From: a virus
Lineage: Duplodnaviria; Heunggongvirae; Uroviricota; Caudoviricetes
DNA length: 44,504 nt
Virus record (IMG/VR): IMGVR_UViG_2537561991_000021
Reading direction: 5' to 3' (one strand)
Position 1 is the first letter of the stretch. Every line of letters begins with the position of its first letter. The notes below the pieces were generated by a model, which saw only the letters and a list, made by a program, of their open reading frames with translations, did no database searches and was not told the origin of the DNA. This document shows positions 3,816 through 39,454 of the stretch, in pieces. Made by a program: the position numbers and the translations under genes.

Positions 3816-5011
3816 GACTCCACCGTTATAACGATATTTTCCGGGGTACAGGACGCAGATTCGTTGTATCTGATATCAATGTTTGATGACGACAAAGCCC
3901 CCGGAGATTTCCCAATCGTCAGTTCCTGAATATCGTAATAGCGTGCATTCCCGCCACTCACCACGCCAAGATTCGCCGGTGAGTAAATGCGACTTAAAAG
4001 GACCGAATCACCAATCATCAGACTATTGATATAGTCGGAAATAGCCTGCTGGATCTGCTGCCCTATCTGTGAGGTATAACCCGTAAAAACTTTTAATTTA
4101 ATCCGGGCATAAACAGGCACATCACTGGAACGCGAGAATTTGATTACATGGGGATTGCCGTATTTATCCGGAACCGTAACGGATGTTGTACCGTGAGTGG
4201 CTGTCCCCTGGCCTTTATTCCCTCTGATAGCCTGAGCAATATCCATCACATCACCGCCATCCACAATTACAGCAACAGAGTGTGGCGGTAACCCGTTACC
4301 GTCCTCCGAACCAGTATCGTTTTCATAGAGTTTGTGGCGGGTTACACCGGTAACATTAGAAACAGCACCATCCAGTGCTTCAAATGGGGTTATTGATGGC
4401 AACGCAACACTTTGCGACTGGCGGATACGTAACTCCGCATCAGTTTCTGCCGGAGAGCCAACAGTAGCCGCAGCAGGATTAGTTACCGAAACCCAGCCAC
4501 GGGTTGGCGTATTAATTTCAGTGATAGTTCCAGCCAGCGCCGCCACTGCACCACTGACGGAACATGTTGCGGTCGCCATCACTGTACCATCCACGCCGAC
4601 CACCACTGAAGCAGGCAAACGCCATATCACACTATTACTGTCTTTCACGCTGCCATTAATGATGGTTGTTCCGGCAGTTCCTGTAAGAAGCAAATCAACC
4701 GTAGAATTCGTCGCGCCTTTACGTGAAATACCATTTATTTTCACGTTACTGGTCAGTGCGGCCCCATAGCCGGTTGCCGGTGAAAAACAGTTGTAGACAG
4801 TTATCGCAGTATTATTGGCATCATGAATCGCCAGCGCCATCAGAGCCACCATCTGGCCGTCTTTACTATCCGGTTCGAGGTAGGCATCACTGCCATAAAT
4901 CTGCTGAAAATAGCTAATCAGGGTGCTGAGTATCGTCTGATAATCAGGCGCACTGATCCCCTCCGCGGTTACCTTTGCAGATAAACCGAGAGAATCAAGG
5001 TTCAGAGCCAT
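3812..5011 (-). CDS. baseplate J-like protein (P2 gpJ / Mu gp47-like)
   Basis: 399 aa; size and position in a baseplate cluster; translationally coupled to neighbours. Confidence 0.7.
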   Translation of the reverse strand: MALNLDSLGLSAKVTAEGISAPDYQTILSTLISYFQQIYGSDAYLEPDSKDGQMVALMALAIHDANNTAITVYNCFSPATGYGAALTSNVKINGISRKGATNSTVDLLLTGTAGTTIINGSVKDSNSVIWRLPASVVVGVDGTVMATATCSVSGAVAALAGTITEINTPTRGWVSVTNPAAATVGSPAETDAELRIRQSQSVALPSITPFEALDGAVSNVTGVTRHKLYENDTGSEDGNGLPPHSVAVIVDGGDVMDIAQAIRGNKGQGTATHGTTSVTVPDKYGNPHVIKFSRSSDVPVYARIKLKVFTGYTSQIGQQIQQAISDYINSLMIGDSVLLSRIYSPANLGVVSGGNARYYDIQELTIGKSPGALSSSNIDIRYNESASCTPENIVITVES

Positions 5012-23725: not shown

Positions 23726-24067
23726 TTACTCCTTAGAGCCACCAAACTTGTTACCGATTACTCGCATTGCAGCCCCACGAATAGCATCGACACCGATCAG
23801 CCCAACACCACCACCAATGGCAACAGAAAGAGATTTAGGCCATCCAACATACTCAAGAGCGGATGCAAAGGTCAGCGTCAGAGCACCACAGAGCAAAATC
23901 TCAAGCGTTTTTCGTTTCCAGCCGCCGCCACCGCCAAAATAGGCAATGCGCAAGCCAGCCATAACAATTGACATAACCACTGCGCCCAACGGCGTATCTC
24001 CACGCCACCAACTTTGTAAGAGTTCCAGTAAGTCAGGCCAGGAATGAGGAGCATTGTGCATTTTCAT
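23726..24067 (-). CDS. holin with dual-start motif
   Basis: Begins MKMHNAPHSW (Met-Lys-Met as in lambda S107/S105), preceded by a GGAGGTG RBS, and has hydrophobic helices. The ORF-track start at 24085 includes the RBS. Confidence 0.8.
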   Translation of the reverse strand: MKMHNAPHSWPDLLELLQSWWRGDTPLGAVVMSIVMAGLRIAYFGGGGGWKRKTLEILLCGALTLTFASALEYVGWPKSLSVAIGGGVGLIGVDAIRGAAMRVIGNKFGGSKE

Positions 24068-24163
24068 ACTTCCCACCTCCGCCATTACGGGGTGTTGTTG
24101 AAAGGCGGGCCCTGCGTATACGCCCGTAGGATTGGGTTATGAGCCGTCCTTCGGTGGGCCCTG

Positions 24164-24512: not shown

Positions 24513-24853
24513 TTATCTTACCTTGATGCCTGATGCCGTCAGATGTTTACGACAGTCCTGAATACCTTCGTTATAACCCGCATCGTAGAAGCTATCCGGC
24601 TTTGCCTTCAGCGCAGGAAGCGTAACGCTGGTAGCTCTTCGTTCGGCCAGAACACCTGCCTGAAAGAGTGTCCACATCAACTGAACTGCTGAATCACAGT
24701 AAGTAACATCTTCACTGTACAATTCTCGTTCAATCCGATGCCAAGTTGAGCCTTCATTGATGCGCCAATATTACCTTTGACCTGCAACGACAGGTCTGGG
24801 TACCTCTGTTCCATGAAGCTTTCAAATCTGTTGCGAACGCTGATCAGAGCCAT
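24513..24853 (-). pseudogene. frameshifted hypothetical gene directly after Q
   Basis: A 58-codon ATG ORF with an AAGGGA RBS (MALISVRNRFESFMEQ...) overlaps a -1-frame ORF of 69 aa or more (24513..24722). No slippery heptamer is visible in the overlap. Confidence 0.4.
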
Positions 24854-24884
24854 CTGGTTCCCTTACGTGATTGATTGCTGGATA

Positions 24885-25307
24885 TTATGCCGCCGAGCAG
24901 CTCCTACGCAAAGTCCTGATAGCCTGAGGCTTTGACTGAACCGACTGATCCATTTCGAGCACCACATCCAGCATGGCTAAGCAACCGTCAATAAATCCCT
25001 CTGCCGCCTGAAGCCTCTTCAGAACGTGGGTGTGAGATACGCCGAGCTTCTCACCCATCGCCCGCACGGGCATGGCCTGGACGTAATGCCACTCAAGGAG
25101 CGTGCACAGATACGGATCTTTTTTCTTCAGGCAGCTCATAGCGGAGTTGATGATAAGACCGTCATTGTCACTGCATTTCAGCCTTCCAGACTGCGTCGCG
25201 GGTAGCAGATTCTTAAACCCGGCTGCAACAGGAGGAAAGTAGACGCTACCACCTTCACTCGCTGCCCAGCCACCCCAGCGCTCTAAAACCTGTTGAATAT
25301 TACGCAT
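24885..25307 (-). CDS. Q: late-gene antiterminator Q (QuuD-like)
   Basis: 140 aa; MRNIQQVLERWGGWAA...AAGFK...LLEWHYV...KRLQAAEGFIDGCL resembles DLP12 QuuD-type antiterminators as recalled; located upstream of the lysis cassette. Confidence 0.8.
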   Translation of the reverse strand: MRNIQQVLERWGGWAASEGGSVYFPPVAAGFKNLLPATQSGRLKCSDNDGLIINSAMSCLKKKDPYLCTLLEWHYVQAMPVRAMGEKLGVSHTHVLKRLQAAEGFIDGCLAMLDVVLEMDQSVQSKPQAIRTLRRSCSAA

Positions 25308-25436
25308 AGCTCTGACCTCTACGTTTTGCTACGAAAAAATTTTCTGAGAACCACGTCTGTTTATCCGTGGGTGTGGATAACGCAGTTCCGATTCGCTTAT
25401 TACACGCTGTTATGTGCAAAAAATTCCTTGTTCGGC

Positions 25437-25608
25437 CTGTACCAATCTGTACCCACCTGTACCAGCTCTTTTCAAACCTTTTCCCCAAGCGACTTATATA
25501 TATATATGGGGTTCTTAGTAATTAGGTTGGTACAGATGGTACAGTTGGTACTGACCTTTAAATTCAATTAGTTAAAATGTACCAACCTCTATTTTGAGGC
25601 TGGTACAG
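25437..25608. repeat. iteron-like heptamer array flanking a (TA)7 tract; candidate replication origin
   Basis: CTGTACC at 25437, 25447 and 25457 (10-bp phasing); (TA)n at about 25494..25507; inverted copies GGTACAG at 25529, 25539 and 25602, GGTACTG at 25548, TGTACC at 25578. Confidence 0.6.
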
Positions 25609-27781
25609 GTTGGGACACCGCCTCAAAAATTCGAGTCATTTTCCCCCCAATTCGCCTTTGGGCACGCTTATACCCGCAATTTTGCAAAACATTACTAATT
25701 CGCATTTCTTCGCGTTTTCCGATGCGGTCAGGATTTAGCCCAATCGCATCACGCAAAACATCACTTGCGCGTAAAAATTCGCAATTTCGCGGAAGTTCAT
25801 TAGTCATCAGGTCTGGCGTGTCGAGCCATTTCTCTACCGTTTCAAGCCAAGCATCCTTGATGGTGTACTGTTCATGGACACTCGCTGCCAGTTGTTCAGC
25901 CTCACGGAACTGGATACCCCCCAGACGCTGAAACACCTCACGAGCCTCAGCCCAAAGTAAAAGGAGATCTCTTTTTATCGCTTTCACGTCGACTTTCGAC
26001 ACTTCCACGGGGAGCCAGCGACGGTTACCAGTCTTGTCCGCAAGGAATTCGTCCTCATTGGTGGTACCAACGAACACCAGGCGACGAGGAAACTGGGTGG
26101 CGAACTCCCGGTATTTCGGGATCCAGTTTTCGTGAGTACGCGTCACAAACGCTTTGATTGACTCCAGCTCTTTGGTATTAAGTCCGCGCAGTTCACCAAT
26201 CTCTGCCACCAGCCGACCACGCATTTTTCGAGCGAGATCATCGTCTTTTTCGGCAAAAGAGATTTCAGTAAAAAACGCAGGATCAGGGCTCAGTGCCTCC
26301 ACTCCGGAAGACTTACCGCAGCCCTGCGGACCAACGAGGATCGGCACCATATCCGCTTTGATGCCTGGCTCCAGTACTCGCCCCGCCAACGCGGTCCACA
26401 TGTACATAGACACCGCACGGGTATAAGGCGTGTCGGCTGTACCGAAGTGCGTATGGTAGAAACATTCGATGCGCGGCACGCCATCCCACTCCAGCCCGTT
26501 CAGCCAGGTAATCGCTGAATCGAATGGTTGTTCATCGGCTGCAAGTAACACCACATCGCGAATAAGTTCACGACCAACAGGTTTAAATCCCCGCTTTTCC
26601 ATCGTGATGCGCAGGCGCGCATAATCCGCATCGGTGAATGCTCGCCATTGTCCGGATCCTGCAGAGGCAAACATGATTTCGTCGCGGAACTGGTCAAAGC
26701 GAATATCGATGTCCACAAAATCAGGGCGTACTACTGCTTTGGCTGCGTTGCTGATGGTTGCCTCGATACGCCCCCATTTATCACGCTCGAAAGCAGGCAG
26801 CGGTAAAGGTTCCGCCACTTCGGTGCTGGTCAGATCTTCGAAATCGTCGTTGCGGATCCCGATGGCATTAAGGAAATCTCCGTCATCACGATGCGCACAA
26901 CTGGCATGCAGGCATTTAAAATGCCCCTGCTCAAAGCCCGCGGTTCCCGCAGGAAAATAAGCTGTGCTTGTTGGATCGCCCCCGCTACTGTGGCCGTCTT
27001 CAAACGGACAGCGGATATATCGTTCACCATTTGCGCCATCCAGCAGCGTCCAGCCATTGGCATCAAGATATTCAGCTGTATCATCCGTCGCGCCGGGCGT
27101 GAATGCTGATCGGTCGCGCATCTTCGTGTTGCCCGCTTCGGTGGTTACCGACACAGGGAGTTGTTCAGCCAGGCGCTGCCACAGCGTTTCAAGCTGCTCA
27201 CCAGTAATAGCCGGAGGTTCATCCGGCAAACCACCGTCCCATTCAATACGCGCGCCGCTGCTGTGCGTACCACAGGCAACGAACTGCTGCCCGTTCGCCA
27301 GCAACTCGATAATGCCCATATCCCCCGCCAGGCGATGGATACGCTTACAGAAATCACCATCAACGGCCAGCAGATACAGACACTTATTACTGTTTGCTCG
27401 CCAGCGTCGCGGCGGCAACTCCCCCAGAAGTTGCACAAGCGTTTTGCGAATATCTGCCTGAATGTCTTCATCTTCGCTATCGCAGTCCAGCGCCAGCCAG
27501 CCATGGCCTGTACGCACGCAGATGCCATAATCCGGTTCATTCGACCAGCGGGCAAAATCATGCTCAGTAACAACATACCCGGTCCATTGAGCAATACCGG
27601 TGACCTGGCGGTCCCGGTTATAGCGACTTGGCGTCTTACCCAGCGCTTTCAGTTTACTATCAGGGGATATGGTCGCACCGGGGTTACATACAACTGGGAG
27701 AAGATGATCAGTTCTCCCCAATACCAGGTCGAAATGAAACCACTCATCAGGCGTAGCTCCCCATGGTTTGCTATCGGACAT
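25589..27781 (-). CDS. DNA primase / replication initiator with C-terminal P-loop NTPase
   Basis: 730 aa; Walker A GPQGCGKSS; Cys/His cluster CPFEDGH...CLHASCAH; tightly coupled to the cro-like gene (TAACCCATG). Confidence 0.7.
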   Translation of the reverse strand: MSDSKPWGATPDEWFHFDLVLGRTDHLLPVVCNPGATISPDSKLKALGKTPSRYNRDRQVTGIAQWTGYVVTEHDFARWSNEPDYGICVRTGHGWLALDCDSEDEDIQADIRKTLVQLLGELPPRRWRANSNKCLYLLAVDGDFCKRIHRLAGDMGIIELLANGQQFVACGTHSSGARIEWDGGLPDEPPAITGEQLETLWQRLAEQLPVSVTTEAGNTKMRDRSAFTPGATDDTAEYLDANGWTLLDGANGERYIRCPFEDGHSSGGDPTSTAYFPAGTAGFEQGHFKCLHASCAHRDDGDFLNAIGIRNDDFEDLTSTEVAEPLPLPAFERDKWGRIEATISNAAKAVVRPDFVDIDIRFDQFRDEIMFASAGSGQWRAFTDADYARLRITMEKRGFKPVGRELIRDVVLLAADEQPFDSAITWLNGLEWDGVPRIECFYHTHFGTADTPYTRAVSMYMWTALAGRVLEPGIKADMVPILVGPQGCGKSSGVEALSPDPAFFTEISFAEKDDDLARKMRGRLVAEIGELRGLNTKELESIKAFVTRTHENWIPKYREFATQFPRRLVFVGTTNEDEFLADKTGNRRWLPVEVSKVDVKAIKRDLLLLWAEAREVFQRLGGIQFREAEQLAASVHEQYTIKDAWLETVEKWLDTPDLMTNELPRNCEFLRASDVLRDAIGLNPDRIGKREEMRISNVLQNCGYKRAQRRIGGKMTRIFEAVSQPVPASK

Positions 27782-27784
27782 GGG

Positions 27785-27997
27785 TTAAGCCTTTTTATCG
27801 TTTTGTGAGCCATACAACAGCCAATTAGGGTCGCAATCCAATGCTATAGACATTTCAAGAAGATAACGTGGCCGAGCAATAACACCACTTTCAATTCTGT
27901 TTATTGCCTGCTGGCTCACTCCTGTGAGCTCAGCCAACGTAACTTGCGTCATTTTGAGTTCTTTACGTCGTTCTTTTACTCGGGTCGCTAAGGTCAT
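27785..27997 (-). CDS. Cro-like HTH (XRE family) regulator
   Basis: 70 aa from the ATG at 27997 with a GAGGTG RBS; HTH region QVTLAELTGVSQQAINRIESG; divergent from the CI-like gene. Confidence 0.75.
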   Translation of the reverse strand: MTLATRVKERRKELKMTQVTLAELTGVSQQAINRIESGVIARPRYLLEMSIALDCDPNWLLYGSQNDKKA

Positions 27998-28117
27998 TGC
28001 TTTCACCTCATACAATTTTAGTGGTATTTAGCAACAACAAATGAGGTTTGTCAAATACAACAAAAATTGTTTTTAATGTGGGTATACACATTAATACAAC
28101 CCAGAAGGACTAATCCC
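27998..28117. promoter_or_regulatory. divergent promoter/operator region of the immunity switch
   Basis: Inverted repeats ACAAA-N5-TTTGT (28037..28051) and ATACAA-N6-TTGTTT (28055..28072); TTGACA on the minus strand and TTGTCA-N18-TTTAAT on the plus strand. Confidence 0.55.
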
Positions 28118-28741
28118 ATGTCTCTCGCAGCCCGTTTTAAAGCACGTCGTTTGGAATTAGGAATGACTCAAGTGGAAGTAGCGAATTCTGCAGGGGTTAG
28201 CCAACAATCCATAGAATCCATCGAAAGTGGACGAACCAGAAAGCCACGCAATCTTCTGGATCTGGCTAAGGCCTTGAAATGTAGCCCAGACTGGCTACTG
28301 AACGGTAAAAATATTATGCCTCTCGCGGAGATAAGTACCAGACGCATACCTATATTAAGTTACGTTCAGGCAGGAGAGCTTACAGAAGCAAGAGACATAA
28401 CAGATCTGACAGGGGAATTTGAATATATTTTGGCAGACTCTGACATTCCAGAAACATGCTTCGCATTACGTATTGATGGCGACAGCATGCAACCAGAGTT
28501 TAAAGAAGGAGACATTGTTATCATCGATCCTGATCTATGTCCTGCACCAGGGGAGTTTGTTGTCGCCAAAAACGACGGTCACGAAGCTACATTTAAAAAA
28601 TACCGTCCATTAGGAATCGGCATCGACGACTTTGAATTAATCCCCCTAAATCCTGATTACCCTATTTTTCGTAGTGCAGATATGAACTTACAGATCATAG
28701 GTGTAATGATCGAACACCGTATTTACCGCCGTAAACGTTAG
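28118..28741 (+). CDS. CI-like repressor (HTH-XRE plus LexA-type S24 peptidase domain)
   Basis: N-terminal HTH (MTQVEVANSAGVSQQSIESIESG) and C-terminal autoprotease signature (GDSM...K). ATG at 28118 with an AGAAGGA RBS; the ORF track extends to 28067. Confidence 0.8.
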   Translation: MSLAARFKARRLELGMTQVEVANSAGVSQQSIESIESGRTRKPRNLLDLAKALKCSPDWLLNGKNIMPLAEISTRRIPILSYVQAGELTEARDITDLTGEFEYILADSDIPETCFALRIDGDSMQPEFKEGDIVIIDPDLCPAPGEFVVAKNDGHEATFKKYRPLGIGIDDFELIPLNPDYPIFRSADMNLQIIGVMIEHRIYRRKR

Positions 28742-31742: not shown

Positions 31743-32102
31743 ATGAAACTGAAGCTGAACAATGTTCGTCTGGCCTTCCCGTCTCTGTTTGAAGCTAAAA
31801 CTGTAAACGGCGAAGGCGATCCGCGTTTCTCCGCAGTATTTTTAATGTCTCCCAAACACCCACAACTGGAAGAAATCCGTAAAGCTATGAAGCAGGTAGC
31901 GAAGGAAAAATGGGGAGAGAAGTGGGAGCCCATTTATAACCAGCTGGAGAAAAAACTCAATCTGTGCCTGCATGATGGTGATGAAAAAGCAGAGTATGAA
32001 GGCTTCCCCGGTAATTTCTTCCTGAATGCTGCTAACAAAGCGCGCCCAGCTGTTCTTGATCGCGATCGTTCGCCACTTATTCAGGCTGACGGACGTCCCT
32101 AT
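31743..32102 (+). pseudogene. putative ssDNA-binding protein, 5' part (split by IS insertion)
   Basis: Reading frame runs into the IS end at 32103 (GTAAGCG); continues in frame at 35642. Confidence 0.6.
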
Positions 32103-32174
32103 GGTAAGCGTACAGCCTGAACCGTCTGGTCAGAATCTGACGAATTAGACAAAGTGGTGTCCACCAAATAAGTA

Positions 32175-32576
32175 GTGGGAACCAAAGTATCAGATATGCA
32201 GAAAAATGTGACTCCCGGCAGGCGAAAAGGCTGCCCTAATTATCCTCCCGAATTTAAACAGCAGCTCGTTGCTGCCTCCTGTGAACCCGGGATATCCATC
32301 TCAAAACTTGCTCTTGAAAATGGCATTAACGCCAATCTGTTGTTCAAATGGCGACAACAATGGCGCGAGGGAAAGCTGCTATTACCTTCTTCAGAGAGCC
32401 CCCAGCTACTTCCTGTGACTCTCGATGCAGCTGCCGAACAGCCAGAATCGCTCGCAGAGGACCCGGAAACCCTCAGTATCAGCTGTGAGGTAACGTTCCG
32501 GCACGGGACGCTCCGCTTCAATGGCAATGTCAGCGAAAAGCTCCTGACTCTGCTGATACAGGAACTGAAGCGATGA
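32175..32576 (+). CDS. IS66-family orfA (short form)
   Basis: 133 aa; GINANLLFKWRQQWREGKLL region shared with the longer orfA-like proteins. Confidence 0.75.
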   Translation: MGTKVSDMQKNVTPGRRKGCPNYPPEFKQQLVAASCEPGISISKLALENGINANLLFKWRQQWREGKLLLPSSESPQLLPVTLDAAAEQPESLAEDPETLSISCEVTFRHGTLRFNGNVSEKLLTLLIQELKR

Positions 32577-32920
32577 TCCCGTTACCTTCCGGGACCAAAA
32601 TTTGGCTGGTTGCCGGTATCACCGATATGAGAAATGGCTTCAACGGCCTGGCTGCGAAAGTACAAACGGCGCTGAAAGACGATCCCATGTCCGGCCATGT
32701 TTTCATTTTCCGGGGCCGCAGCGGCAGTCAGGTTAAACTGCTGTGGTCCACCGGTGACGGACTGTGCCTCCTGACCAAACGGCTGGAGCGTGGGCGCTTC
32801 GCCTGGCCGTCAGCCCGTGATGGCAAAGTGTTCCTTACGCAGGCGCAGCTGGCGATGCTGCTGGAAGGTATCGACTGGCGACAGCCTAAGCGGCTGCTGA
32901 CCTCCCTGACCATGCTGTAA
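32573..32920 (+). CDS. IS66 Orf2-like accessory protein (TnpB)
   Basis: 115 aa, clearly related to the orfB at 33672..34019. Confidence 0.8.
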   Translation: MIPLPSGTKIWLVAGITDMRNGFNGLAAKVQTALKDDPMSGHVFIFRGRSGSQVKLLWSTGDGLCLLTKRLERGRFAWPSARDGKVFLTQAQLAMLLEGIDWRQPKRLLTSLTML

Positions 32921-32994
32921 ATCTCTTTATCCTGGTTGTCAGTAACCGGCTCATTTAAACCGTCTGGTCTGTTTCCTCCGGCTCTACAAAAATA

Positions 32995-33672
32995 ATGTCC
33001 ATCATTTTTAATGGACACTATCGTATGAAACACCGGACCTGGATCACTGAAGCTTTACGTCTTCACTTTGAAGAACATTTACCCCGGGTTGTGGCCGGGC
33101 GTCGCCTGGGTGTACCAAAATCAACAGTTTGTAGTATGTTCGTGCGCTTTCGGAGAGCTGGCCTTTCGTGGCCTTTGCCCGCAGGCATGTCGGAGCAGGA
33201 ACTTGATGCCTGCCTTTACGGACAATTTTCCACGGTACCAGTCGTACGTCCTGAAAGCACCGTTATATCCGAAGCCCCCGTGGTAAAAAAACGTCCCCGG
33301 CGGCCCAACTTCCCTTATGAGTTTAAAATCGCCTTAGTGGAGCAGTCACTGCAGCCCGGAGCCTGTGTGGCGCAGATCGCCCGGGAAAACGGAATCAACG
33401 ATAACCTGCTCTTCAACTGGCGCCATCAATACCGGAAAGGTGGCCTGCTGCCTTCCGGAAAAAATATGCCGGCACTGCTTCCCGTGACGTTAACGCCGGA
33501 GCCGGATAATAAAATCCCGGCCCCCGCACAGGAACCAGAGCAGATAAATACACCGTCCGACAGTCTGTGTTGTGAGCTGGTTCTGCCGGCCGGAACTCTC
33601 AGGCTTAAAGGTAAACTGACGCCGGCGTTATTACAGACACTTATCCGCGAAATAAAAGGGAGCAGCCACTGA
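32995..33672 (+). CDS. IS66-family orfA-like protein with N-terminal HTH
   Basis: 225 aa, about 97% identical to 1387..2064. Confidence 0.8.
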   Translation: MSIIFNGHYRMKHRTWITEALRLHFEEHLPRVVAGRRLGVPKSTVCSMFVRFRRAGLSWPLPAGMSEQELDACLYGQFSTVPVVRPESTVISEAPVVKKRPRRPNFPYEFKIALVEQSLQPGACVAQIARENGINDNLLFNWRHQYRKGGLLPSGKNMPALLPVTLTPEPDNKIPAPAQEPEQINTPSDSLCCELVLPAGTLRLKGKLTPALLQTLIREIKGSSH

Positions 33673-34019
33673 TGATATCTCTCCCTGCAGGTTCGCGTAT
33701 CTGGCTGGTTGCAGGTATCACCGATATGCGAAATGGCTTTAACGGCCTGGCATCAAAAGTTCAGAACGTCCTGAAGGATGACCCGTTCTCCGGACACCTG
33801 TTCATCTTCCGCGGACGCCGGGGTGACCAGATAAAAGTGTTGTGGGCTGACAGTGACGGACTGTGCCTCTTCACCAAACGCCTGGAGCGGGGCCGCTTCG
33901 TCTGGCCAGTCACCCGTGACGGCAAGGTGCACCTTACTCCGGCTCAGTTATCCATGCTTCTTGAAGGTATCAACTGGAAGCACCCGAAACGAACGGAACG
34001 CGCTGGAATCCGCATATAA
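33672..34019 (+). CDS. IS66 Orf2-like accessory protein (TnpB)
   Basis: 115 aa, identical to 1040..1387. Confidence 0.85.
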   Translation: MISLPAGSRIWLVAGITDMRNGFNGLASKVQNVLKDDPFSGHLFIFRGRRGDQIKVLWADSDGLCLFTKRLERGRFVWPVTRDGKVHLTPAQLSMLLEGINWKHPKRTERAGIRI

Positions 34020-34038
34020 CCCGTTGTAAAGTGAGGAT

Positions 34039-35610
34039 ATGGACACCTCACTTGCTCATGAGAACGCCCGCCTGCGGGCACTGTTGCAGACGCAACAGGA
34101 CACCATCCGCCAGATGGCTGAATACAACCGCCTGCTCTCACAGCGGGTGGCGGCTTATGCTTCCGAAATCAACCGGCTGAAGGCGCTGGTTGCGAAACTG
34201 CAACGTATGCAGTTCGGTAAAAGCTCAGAAAAACTTCGTGCAAAAACCGAACGGCAGATACAGGAAGCACAGGAGCGAATCAGCGCACTTCAGGAAGAAA
34301 TGGCGGAAACGCTGGGTGAGCAATATGACCCGGTACTGCCATCCGCCCTGCGCCAGTCTTCAGCCCGTAAACCGTTACCGGCCTCACTTCCCCGTGAAAC
34401 CCGGGTTATCCGGCCGGAAGAGGAATGCTGTCCTGCCTGTGGTGGTGAACTCAGTTCTCTGGGATGTGATGTGTCAGAGCAACTGGAGCTTATCAGCAGC
34501 GCCTTTAAGGTTATCGAAACACAACGTCCGAAACAGGCCTGTTGCCGGTGCGACCATATCGTGCAGGCACCAGTACCTTCAAAACCCATTGCACGCAGTT
34601 ATGCCGGAGCGGGGCTTCTGGCCCATGTTGTCACCGGGAAATATGCAGACCATCTGCCGTTATACCGCCAGTCAGAAATATACCGTCGTCAGGGAGTGGA
34701 GCTGAGCCGTGCCACACTGGGGCGCTGGACAGGTGCTGTTGCTGAACTGCTGGAGCCGCTGTATGACGTCCTGCGCCAGTATGTGCTGATGCCCGGTAAA
34801 GTCCATGCTGATGATATCCCCGTCCCGGTCCAGGAGCCGGGCAGCGGTAAAACCCGGACAGCCCGGCTGTGGGTCTACGTCCGTGATGACCGTAACGCCG
34901 GTTCACAGATGCCCCCGGCGGTCTGGTTCGCGTACAGTCCGGACCGGAAAGGTATCCATCCACAAAATCACCTGGCCGGTTACAGCGGTGTGCTTCAGGC
35001 CGATGCTTACGGTGGTTACCGGGCGTTATACGAATCCGGCAGAATAACGGAAGTCGCGTGTATGGCTCATGCCCGGAGAAAAATCCACGATGTGCATGCA
35101 AGAGCGCCCACCTACATCACCACGGAAGCCCTGCAGCGTATCGGTGAACTGTATGCCATCGAGGCAGAGGTCCGGGGCTGTTCAGCAGAACAGCGTCTGG
35201 CGGCAAGAAAAGCCAGAGCCGCGCCACTGATGCAGTCACTGTATGACTGGATACAGCAACAGATGAAAACACTGTCGCGTCACTCAGATACGGCAAAAGC
35301 GTTCGCATACCTGCTGAAACAGTGGGATGCACTGAACGTGTACTGCAGTAATGGCTGGGTGGAAATCGACAACAACATCGCAGAGAACGCCTTACGGGGA
35401 GTGGCCGTAGGCCGGAAAAACTGGATGTTCGCGGGTTCCGACAGCGGTGGTGAACATGCGGCGGTGTTGTACTCGCTGATCGGCACATGCCGTCTGAACA
35501 ATGTGGAGCCAGAAAAGTGGCTGCGTTACGTCATTGAACATATCCAGGACTGGCCGGCAAACCGGGTACGCGATCTGTTGCCCTGGAAAGTTGATCTGAG
35601 CTCTCAGTAA
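34039..35610 (+). CDS. IS66-family transposase TnpC
   Basis: 523 aa with leucine-zipper-like N-terminus and CPACGG...CxxC zinc motif; right inverted repeat 30 bp downstream. Confidence 0.85.
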
Positions 35611-38692: not shown

Positions 38693-39454
38693 ATGCAGGA
38701 ACTAACTGAAATGCCGATCACCTATCCATACCCGAGAGAAACTTTTCCTGACTTTTTGAGGGAGTGTGGGTTCACCAATTTTTCCCACGAACAGCGTGAG
38801 ACTTGTGACTGCTATCGTTTAACGAATGGCGTAATTGTTAACCTTTACACCACCCGGACCATTCAGTTTCAAGGTAACCCTCAAGAACGTCCCAATGTTG
38901 AAACTGCAATAATGACCCATTTAGGAACGCCGCCCACGGCAACACCACTAGCCGTAGAACAGCCATCTGAGCTCCCCAAAAAGATATTCATTGTTCACGG
39001 CCATGACCATACTGCAAAGGAGCAACTTGAGCTAATCCTTCATAAACTTGGATTACCAGACCATTTCATTTTGCAGAATACGGGAGGGACTGGACTCACC
39101 ATTATTGAAGAGCTTGAACGTGAAATTGGGCAAGGACAAACTGCTACCCGTTTCGGGATTGTTCTTTTGACACCTGATGATATGGGATACTCAAAGCGCG
39201 CCGGTGAAGCAGAAATCCAACCCCGCGCAAGACAGAACGTTGTACTCGAGATGGGTATGCTTCTTTCGTCCTTAGGGCGCAGCAATGTAGCAATCCTTCA
39301 GAAACAGCACCTAGAACAGCCTTCTGATGCTAACGGGATTTTGTATCTGAATTTCAACGACCATGTACGTGAAACAGTTCCTCGTCTAGTGCAACGGTTA
39401 CAAAATTCTGGTTTCGAATTTACACAAGCTCAAATAGCTAACGCTTCCTCGTAA
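38693..39454 (+). CDS. TIR-like domain protein (predicted nucleotide-binding TIR-like fold) with a unique N-terminal domain
   Basis: 253 aa; C-terminal region KIFIVHGHDH...GIVLLTPDDMG...ARQNVVLEMGMLLSSLGRSNVAILQ...PSDANGILYL matches the recalled consensus of the TIR-like nucleotide-binding family. Lower GC than neighbours; own RBS and terminator. Confidence 0.6.
   Translation: MQELTEMPITYPYPRETFPDFLRECGFTNFSHEQRETCDCYRLTNGVIVNLYTTRTIQFQGNPQERPNVETAIMTHLGTPPTATPLAVEQPSELPKKIFIVHGHDHTAKEQLELILHKLGLPDHFILQNTGGTGLTIIEELEREIGQGQTATRFGIVLLTPDDMGYSKRAGEAEIQPRARQNVVLEMGMLLSSLGRSNVAILQKQHLEQPSDANGILYLNFNDHVRETVPRLVQRLQNSGFEFTQAQIANASS

Follow-up and report, generated by a model that had tools for sequence, protein, structure and literature searches.

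The repeat array and the adjoining initiator gene

The stretch of viral DNA considered here (IMG/VR record IMGVR_UViG_2537561991_000021, 44,504 nucleotides in all, and referred to below as the window) carries an array of 8-bp repeats, or iterons, that begins within the 3' end of a gene for a 730-residue protein of the Pri-Rep (primase and replication initiator) type and extends into the 281-bp gap between this gene and that of the antiterminator Q (Table 1). An earlier note on the same DNA had put the array forward as a candidate origin of replication. The genes around the array are all on the minus strand; the Pri-Rep gene directly follows cro and is the only gene between cro and Q.

Table 1. 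Positions in the window of the array, of the features associated with it, and of neighboring genes
Feature	Position	Strand	Description and basis
Whole iteron array	25437-25618		9-10 copies of TGGTACAG
Q-side iteron set	25437-25464	-	3 copies, TGGTACAG, GGGTACAG, TGGTACAG; inverted relative to primase-side set
Central spacer	25465-25527		63 bp, AT-rich, 33-37% G+C; sequence and composition
Primase-side iteron set	25528-25553	+	3 copies, TGGTACAG, TGGTACAG, TGGTACTG
Stop-codon iteron group	25577-25618	both	3 copies; same arrangement of two plus one inverted in all relatives read
Hairpin from inverted iteron pair	25578-25607	-	12-bp stem, 6-nt loop, then TTTT on transcribed strand; terminator scan
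DnaA box, TTATCCACA	25372-25380	-	only perfect consensus in window; 57 bp beyond last iteron
Pri-Rep-type protein gene, 730 aa	25589-27781	-	putative N-terminal primase-polymerase region, VapE-like helicase/initiator ATPase, predicted C-terminal winged helix
Wing-strand codons, M715-E720 (MTRIFE)	25622-25639	-	second strand of predicted wing; within model strand 714-721
Antiterminator Q gene	24885-25307	-	Pfam Phage_antitermQ, E=5e-42; downstream neighbor, not part of origin
Holin gene	23726-24085	-	Pfam
Cro-like helix-turn-helix gene	27785-28015	-	Pfam
LexA-type repressor gene	28067-28741	divergent	Pfam

The three Q-side copies (25437-25444, 25447-25454, the latter with one mismatch, and 25457-25464) are spaced by exactly 10 bp, as the earlier note had stated for their CTGTACC core. 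The inverted copies on the primase side, recorded there as GGTACAG/GGTACTG, are also present, at 25528-25535, 25537-25544 and 25546-25553, with a spacing of 9 bp and not the approximately 10 bp that had been claimed, and two of the starts given, 25539 and 25548, are wrong by one base in each case. In the third group, the reverse copy TGGTACAT (25577-25584) is directly 3' of the stop codon of the primase gene (TAG, 25589-25591, minus strand), and a forward copy of TGGTACAG (25601-25608) lies within the final codons, so that the two, previously located at 25578 and 25602, form an inverted pair around the stop; a degenerate forward copy, TGGGACAC (25611-25618), had been overlooked. The alternating tract in the central spacer is (TA)6T, 13 nt (25495-25507), rather than (TA)7. 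The 63-bp spacer is the presumed DNA-unwinding element, and its core, CCCCATATATATATATAAGTCG, is retained in most enterobacterial relatives, even in those in which every iteron is different.

Matches to the motif with at most one mismatch number 39 in the 44.5-kb window, and 8 of these sit within 172 bp. In shuffled sequence there are 25.1 matches per window, or ∼0.1 per 172 bp, and a total of 39 was reached in no shuffle; the Poisson probability of at least 8 matches in 172 bp is ∼1e-13. A chance origin of the array is excluded by this excess. Outside the array, the exact motif occurs only once more in the window, at 4582, and the one-mismatch matches are scattered at background frequency.

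The 730-residue protein contains a VapE-like domain (PF05272, E=2.3e-60, Pfam), and its residues 384-657 align by phmmer with Rep1 of the staphylococcal island SaPI1 (Protein Data Bank entry 7PDS, chain A, 7pds_A; E=7.2e-34), a structure that represents a complex of Rep1 with DNA (PMC9371898). Homologues are annotated as replication protein or bifunctional primase/polymerase, and for many of them, at 61-94% identity, a precomputed match to PF09250 (Prim-Pol) is available. In AlphaFold models, one for the full-length protein and one for residues 596-730, the C terminus consists of three helices (641-653, 672-680, and 689-701) followed by a β hairpin (strands 704-711 and 714-721), with block means of 81-91 for the predicted local distance difference test (pLDDT) in this domain. 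It should be noted that the full-length model is poor in the ATPase core (pLDDT 25-36, residues ∼500-590) and of moderate confidence in the N-terminal region, and served for domain order only; comparison of a sequence profile of the C-terminal domain with the Protein Data Bank gave no match at E≤10. The predicted C-terminal winged helix, residues ∼641-721, is the likely DNA-binding module, and not the N-terminal domain, with which the earlier note had suggested a binding assay.

The final ten residues of the protein, AVSQPVPASK (25592-25621), are iteron DNA translated as protein, and other iteron classes have different iteron-encoded tails, such as PLEPRGTT and PVSQPDPTS. Two relatives (loci L059 and L071) end at MTRIFEPV, and the residues after Glu720 appear to be a dispensable by-product of the overlap between origin and gene.

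Conservation of the layout and covariation of iterons with the wing strand

The array was compared with 89 related loci, comprising 80 viral contigs, six complete E. coli genomes, Yersinia phage YeP4, Hamiltonella phage APSE-1, and Caulobacter phage Jess A. One layout is common to all 89: two copies at the stop codon with their inverted partner, three copies at 9-bp spacing, the central spacer, and two to four inverted copies. In YeP4, APSE-1, Jess A, and relatives at ∼50% identity, the array stays 3' of the primase gene whatever gene comes next, and in YeP4 and many of the contigs the gene after the array is not Q but encodes a small helix-turn-helix-like protein or another product. The earlier note had looked to the CTGTACC core at the equivalent position in related phages as a check on its proposal; what is kept in every relative read is the layout, and the iteron sequence varies among them, with ∼13 types.

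Two side observations concern APSE-1 and the alternating tract. In APSE-1 a hypothetical open reading frame, P4 (L088, 2861-3082), has been annotated wholly inside the predicted AT-rich spacer and iteron sets; it has no Pfam match and is probably not a real gene. The APSE-1 locus also has an extra mirrored iteron group after the second set, a group that the window does not have. Alternating purine-pyrimidine tracts recur in or near the origins of relatives: CGCGTGCGCGCGCACGCATGTATG in L085 and GCGCGCGC in L084 occupy the position of the (TA) tract (∼4830-4870 in L085/L086 and ∼4740-4760 in L084), and in many contigs CTCGCGCGTGCGCGCG precedes the next gene, many enterobacterial loci having such a tract ∼250 nt beyond the stop codon of the primase gene. 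The center of the origin may need an alternating, easily distorted tract rather than AT-richness alone.

A first comparison is with closely related prophages that have different iterons. In E. coli DEC5B, IAI1, and SEC470, the flanks of the array are almost identical to those in the window, and TGGTTCCA/TGGAACCA stands at the exact place of each iteron. The primases of the window and of this group are 97-98% identical, and their differences fall essentially only after residue 714 (KMTRIFEAVSQPVPASK versus KKCKVWEPLEPRGTT). Over 6.4 kb, the window and DEC5B differ at 100 positions in 25400-25650 and at ∼22 in the other 6.1 kb; thus, the DEC5B prophage, which is ∼98% identical, differs almost solely in a 250-bp cassette that contains the iterons and the wing residues. 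In the prophage of E. coli FDAARGOS_1059, which is integrated beside yfhL and is 100% identical to the window over a 451-bp region around the array, the Q and Cro proteins have the same accessions as in DEC5B, yet the iterons are completely different.

This pairing extends across the sample. In a scripted table of 86 loci (83 of the relatives, the window, and L003 and L072, which are re-fetches of prophages already sampled), there are ∼13 iteron types and 15 classes of wing strand, and the iteron type goes with the five or six residues that follow a conserved Gly-Lys in the second strand of the wing, with no mismatched locus among the 86. The wing MTRIFE is found with TGGTACAG, K[CS]KVWE with TGGTTCCA, KMRIFE and KQRIWE with GGGACAG, LMKVW with GGTAACAG, VQRVWV with GGTTACAG, QQR[IV]F with GTTGTCTAG, QIRVWV with GGTGGTCTAG, and VCRVWE, the wing of APSE-1, with GGTTGTTAC. 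The wing strand of the primase is the only protein segment that was found to change together with the iterons. The cores of MTRIF proteins are 77-100% identical to that of the window, and those of KCKVW proteins are up to 99.4% identical; because the class of the wing is incongruent with the rest of the protein, the cassette travels between backgrounds in matched form. The pairing is not an artifact of coding overlap, since the MTRIFE codons overlap no iteron and L059 and L071, with their shortened C termini, have the same iterons. In the most diverged pair of the TGGTACA class, iteron positions are 95% identical as compared with 71% for other positions, which may be read as the mark of selection on the iterons.

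The MTRIFE segment is accordingly proposed, from these comparisons of sequences, as a determinant of specificity for the iteron. The recognition helix, REEMRISNVLQNC, is nearly invariant and a GGT-rich half is common to all iteron types, and we infer from this that the helix would read the shared half of the iteron and the wing strand, residues 715-720, the variable half.

An iteron-type origin beside the initiator/primase gene, as the earlier note had suggested, draws support from the homology with SaPI Rep, from a layout identical to that of the origins of SaPIs (Staphylococcus aureus pathogenicity islands) and phage-inducible chromosomal islands (PICIs), from the presence of this layout in the 89 relatives, and from the covariation in the 86 loci. 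The comparative evidence is the strongest part of the case. The array is most probably the vegetative replication origin, of the Pri-Rep/iteron type that was originally defined in SaPIs, of a temperate myovirus-like prophage of E. coli, a conclusion in which binding, melting, and origin activity are all inferred.

A mechanism consistent with these features can be outlined. The 730-residue protein would combine a primase-polymerase, a self-loading hexameric helicase, and an initiator in a single chain. Its C-terminal winged helix would bind the 8-bp iterons, which, at 9-10 bp apart or about one helical turn, would be presented on one face of the helix, in the two oppositely oriented sets that flank the 63-bp spacer and in the third group around its own stop codon. 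Binding at both sides would place helicase rings head to head, and the spacer containing (TA)6T would be melted. The N-terminal domain would then prime synthesis, and the prophage's own genes for a family-A DNA polymerase, a single-stranded DNA-binding protein (SSB), and a nuclease would complete the replisome.

Several points weigh against this interpretation, or against parts of it. First, because no more than ∼200 bp separate the wing strand from the iterons, co-inheritance could account for part of the covariation, as opposed to recognition. Second, the VQRVW class has GGTTACAG in most loci and GGTAACAG in L081, and the VLKVW class (L034, L038, and L051) has GGATACA and GGTTACA mixed within the same array, so that the six wing residues do not fully determine specificity; the mixed arrays suggest either relaxed specificity or an intermediate state of a specificity switch. 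Third, PF09250 (Prim-Pol) was not reported at E≤0.001 in an hmmscan of the window protein itself. Finally, the copy of the prophage in the window may be replication-defective, although its origin sequence is intact, because elements of the IS66 family interrupt the gene for the SSB.

Transcription across the array, other roles for the repeats, and genomic setting

The inverted iteron pair at the stop codon can also form a hairpin in the transcript. The RNA fold of 25560-25635 has a free energy of −26.9 kcal/mol (z = −5.1) and includes the 12-bp stem, which is followed by a T run, and in YeP4 an equivalent hairpin is followed by ATTTTT. Transcripts coming from the primase gene may be terminated weakly at this hairpin, as an intrinsic terminator, before they reach Q. 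It is a different and highly unlikely proposition that this part of the array is mainly a terminator or attenuator limiting read-through into Q, with the likeness to the repeats being secondary. The stem is made of two iteron copies, and its sequence tracks the iteron class in every relative; since the T run is missing in the DEC5B/IAI1/SEC470 group, the terminator role is not conserved; and it would explain only 2 of the 9-10 copies. Termination fits the origin model as an added function, not as a replacement for it.

Between the primase gene and Q, a promoter scan found no σ70-like site on the minus strand. The single plus-strand match in the gap (25551-25578) faces away from both genes, and the total number of promoter matches equals that in shuffled sequences. 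As no separate promoter for Q was detected, early transcription probably must cross the origin to reach Q. An extension of this that we regard as unlikely is that the origin, the first iteron pair of which gives a terminator-like hairpin in the transcript, doubles as a replication-coupled gate for the late genes, with iteron occupancy by Pri-Rep or passage of the fork deciding whether transcription reaches Q. If this were so, the late genes would be turned on only after replication begins, and the five or six residues of the wing strand would be a compact, swappable code that sets replicon identity among co-resident prophages.

Binding of the repeats by some other phage or host protein, for packaging (as a pac site), for partition, or for incompatibility or copy control in the manner of crr of P4, is likewise highly unlikely. 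Phased short repeats are also typical of sites for terminase small subunits and centromere-binding proteins, and the window and DEC5B differ in three accessory segments of the left arm. However, there are no partition genes beside the array, and the prophage is integrative, with an integrase gene; the terminase genes are ∼3 kb away, and prophages that differ in their iterons have a terminase small subunit of the same accession (WP_000162796.1); the window has no further cluster of the motif, unlike P4 with its ori and crr; and the adjoining gene encodes a homologue of a proven iteron-binding initiator. The least probable of these alternatives, also raised in the earlier note, is that the repeats are operators for a transcription factor that controls Q and the late genes, with no part in replication: the array does lie in the gap upstream of Q, where a bound factor would lie in the way of early transcription given the lack of a detectable Q promoter, but Q and Cro are identical in the DEC5B and FDAARGOS_1059 prophages, and their repressors have adjacent accession numbers, with completely different iterons, the array follows the primase gene also where the next gene is not Q, only the primase wing, and no regulator, was found to vary with the iterons, and the layout fits experimentally defined origins.

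The DnaA box lies in an inverted repeat, TTATCC-N8-GGATAA (25364-25383), in the leader of Q. Among the E. coli relatives it does not vary, whichever of the two iteron classes they have, and a different sequence is present in Q-linked relatives L052, L034, and L038. It is a possible part of the origin, and because it is not kept in these Q-linked relatives of other lineages it is not counted here in favor of the origin. The IHF consensus, WATCAANNNNTTR, is not matched exactly anywhere in the origin; a match with one mismatch, in a conserved AT-rich stretch (25555-25576), was picked out by eye only and is not claimed as a site. A scan of 24800-25900 against Rfam at E≤1 revealed no known RNA family that explains the region, and a match to c4-a1b1 within Q (25202-25242), at 16.3 bits as compared with a gathering score of 46.7 bits (E=0.31), is taken as chance.

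The FDAARGOS_1059 prophage encodes terminase, portal, head, tail, and baseplate proteins, a holin, an endolysin, a DNA polymerase, and an integrase. Its left arm contains the genes for a DUF2800 protein, an Enc34-type SSB, a family-A DNA polymerase, a VRR-NUC nuclease, a DEAD/DEAH-box helicase (annotated as SNF2-related in DEC5B), and the integrase. The origin region was matched in 140 of 5,426 complete E. coli genomes, with 80% or more of its length covered in 99 of these, and the Yersinia phages YeP4-6 have been deposited as complete phage genomes with named hosts.

Two side observations concern other parts of the prophage in the window. Material of the IS66 family lies within the Enc34-type SSB gene (31743-35610) and consists of two TnpA/TnpB pairs and one 523-residue DDE transposase, the related open reading frames being 32175-32576, 32573-32920, 32995-33672, 33672-34019, and 34039-35610. 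The remaining SSB reading frame, 31743-32120, covers only positions 1-115 of the 176 in the profile, and the gene is intact in the FDAARGOS_1059 prophage. Directly downstream of the DNA polymerase gene, an open reading frame for 253 residues (38693-39454, plus strand) matches the length and relative position of an annotated TIR-domain gene in the FDAARGOS_1059 prophage (L001, 29899-30660), and the DEC5B prophage has different genes at the corresponding place. Judged by its length and position, it looks like a defense-type accessory gene in the replication arm.

Comparison with known replicons

The closest likeness is to the replicons of SaPIs and PICIs. The Rep proteins of SaPIs are self-loading helicases as well as initiators, in which a C-terminal winged helix recognizes the iterons, and SaPI origins consist of 6-12 iterons immediately downstream of rep, oppositely directed on the two sides of an AT-rich center (PMC9371898). 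The PICIs of E. coli share this layout, and plasmids carrying pri-rep-ori were tested for maintenance at a restrictive temperature, with Δori and Δpri controls (PMC6092414). The system described here resembles SaPI1 Rep1, SaPI5 PriRep5, and EcCICFT073 in having a homologous helicase core and a predicted C-terminal winged helix, and the features by which these two studies describe an origin are found in the window, where the array is immediately 3' of the gene and has two oppositely oriented sets of short iterons around an AT-rich center. As in SaPI5, primase and Rep are probably fused, the primase part here resting on the PF09250 matches of the homologues. The differences are that the iterons here are 8 bp, whereas those of SaPIs are described as penta- or hexanucleotides, that there is an additional iteron group across the stop codon, which encodes an apparently dispensable protein tail, and that the origin is located between the initiator gene and that of the late-gene antiterminator Q. 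Also, it belongs to a complete temperate phage genome of ∼40 kb, with structural, lysis, DNA polymerase, and SSB genes, and not to a satellite. The element in the window is therefore not itself a PICI satellite, since structural and lysis genes are complete in the matching prophage; what is shared is the type of replicon.

In the α protein of P4, a primase, a helicase, and a C-terminal winged-helix origin-binding domain are combined in one polypeptide, which recognizes octamers, the type I iterons TGTTCACC. By this description, the one-chain organization and the short repeated octamers would be common to both systems. P4, however, needs two separated clusters, ori and crr, whereas the window has a single cluster; apart from the isolated exact copy and the background matches noted above, no second iteron cluster is present, and an ori/crr system of the P4 type is rejected. 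The homology between the Pri-Rep proteins of PICIs and the P4 proteins has been described as distant only (PMC6092414).

Like the origin of λ, this origin occupies an early rightward operon of lambdoid style, after cro and before Q; further likenesses are the position of iterons beside an AT-rich region, with part of them overlapping the initiator's own coding sequence, and the exchange of initiator specificity and iterons as a module between related phages. It differs from that of λ in that the initiator is itself a helicase and primase, so that no DnaB loader is implied, in the size of the units, 8 bp as compared with inverted repeats of ∼19 bp, and in having most of the iterons outside the gene. 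An origin of the λ O/P type is rejected, since Pri-Rep alone lies between cro and Q and there are no matches to the O or P families.

The iterons of plasmids such as pSC101, F, R6K, and RK2 are 17-22 bp long, and the tandem winged-helix Rep proteins that bind to them recruit DnaA, DnaB, and DnaC of the host. Origins of this RepA/TrfA type and the array in the window have in common phased direct repeats beside an AT-rich unwinding element, and here a perfect DnaA box is nearby. In contrast, the units here are 8 bp, the initiator is a helicase, and the DnaA box is not conserved outside E. coli.

The origin is thus of a known kind, that of the Pri-Rep-ori replicons of SaPIs and PICIs and, by analogy, of P4 α, and involves no new kind of mechanism. 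Literature searches revealed no description of this origin in these phages, nor of the origins of YeP4-6, APSE-1, and Jess A. What is new is the extra iteron group over the stop codon and the clear pairing between wing strand and iteron. The analysis gives a widespread group of enterobacterial prophages a concrete origin and initiator that can be tested, with the same layout in the Yersinia phages YeP4-6, in phage APSE-1 of the aphid symbiont Hamiltonella, and in the Caulobacter phage Jess A. The ∼13 natural pairs of iteron and wing, on proteins that are otherwise nearly identical, constitute a data set for the reading of DNA by the wing and for orthogonal origins. A layout that has been described as the hallmark of the PICI satellites is found here in complete phages, which bears on the question of where the replicons of the satellites came from.

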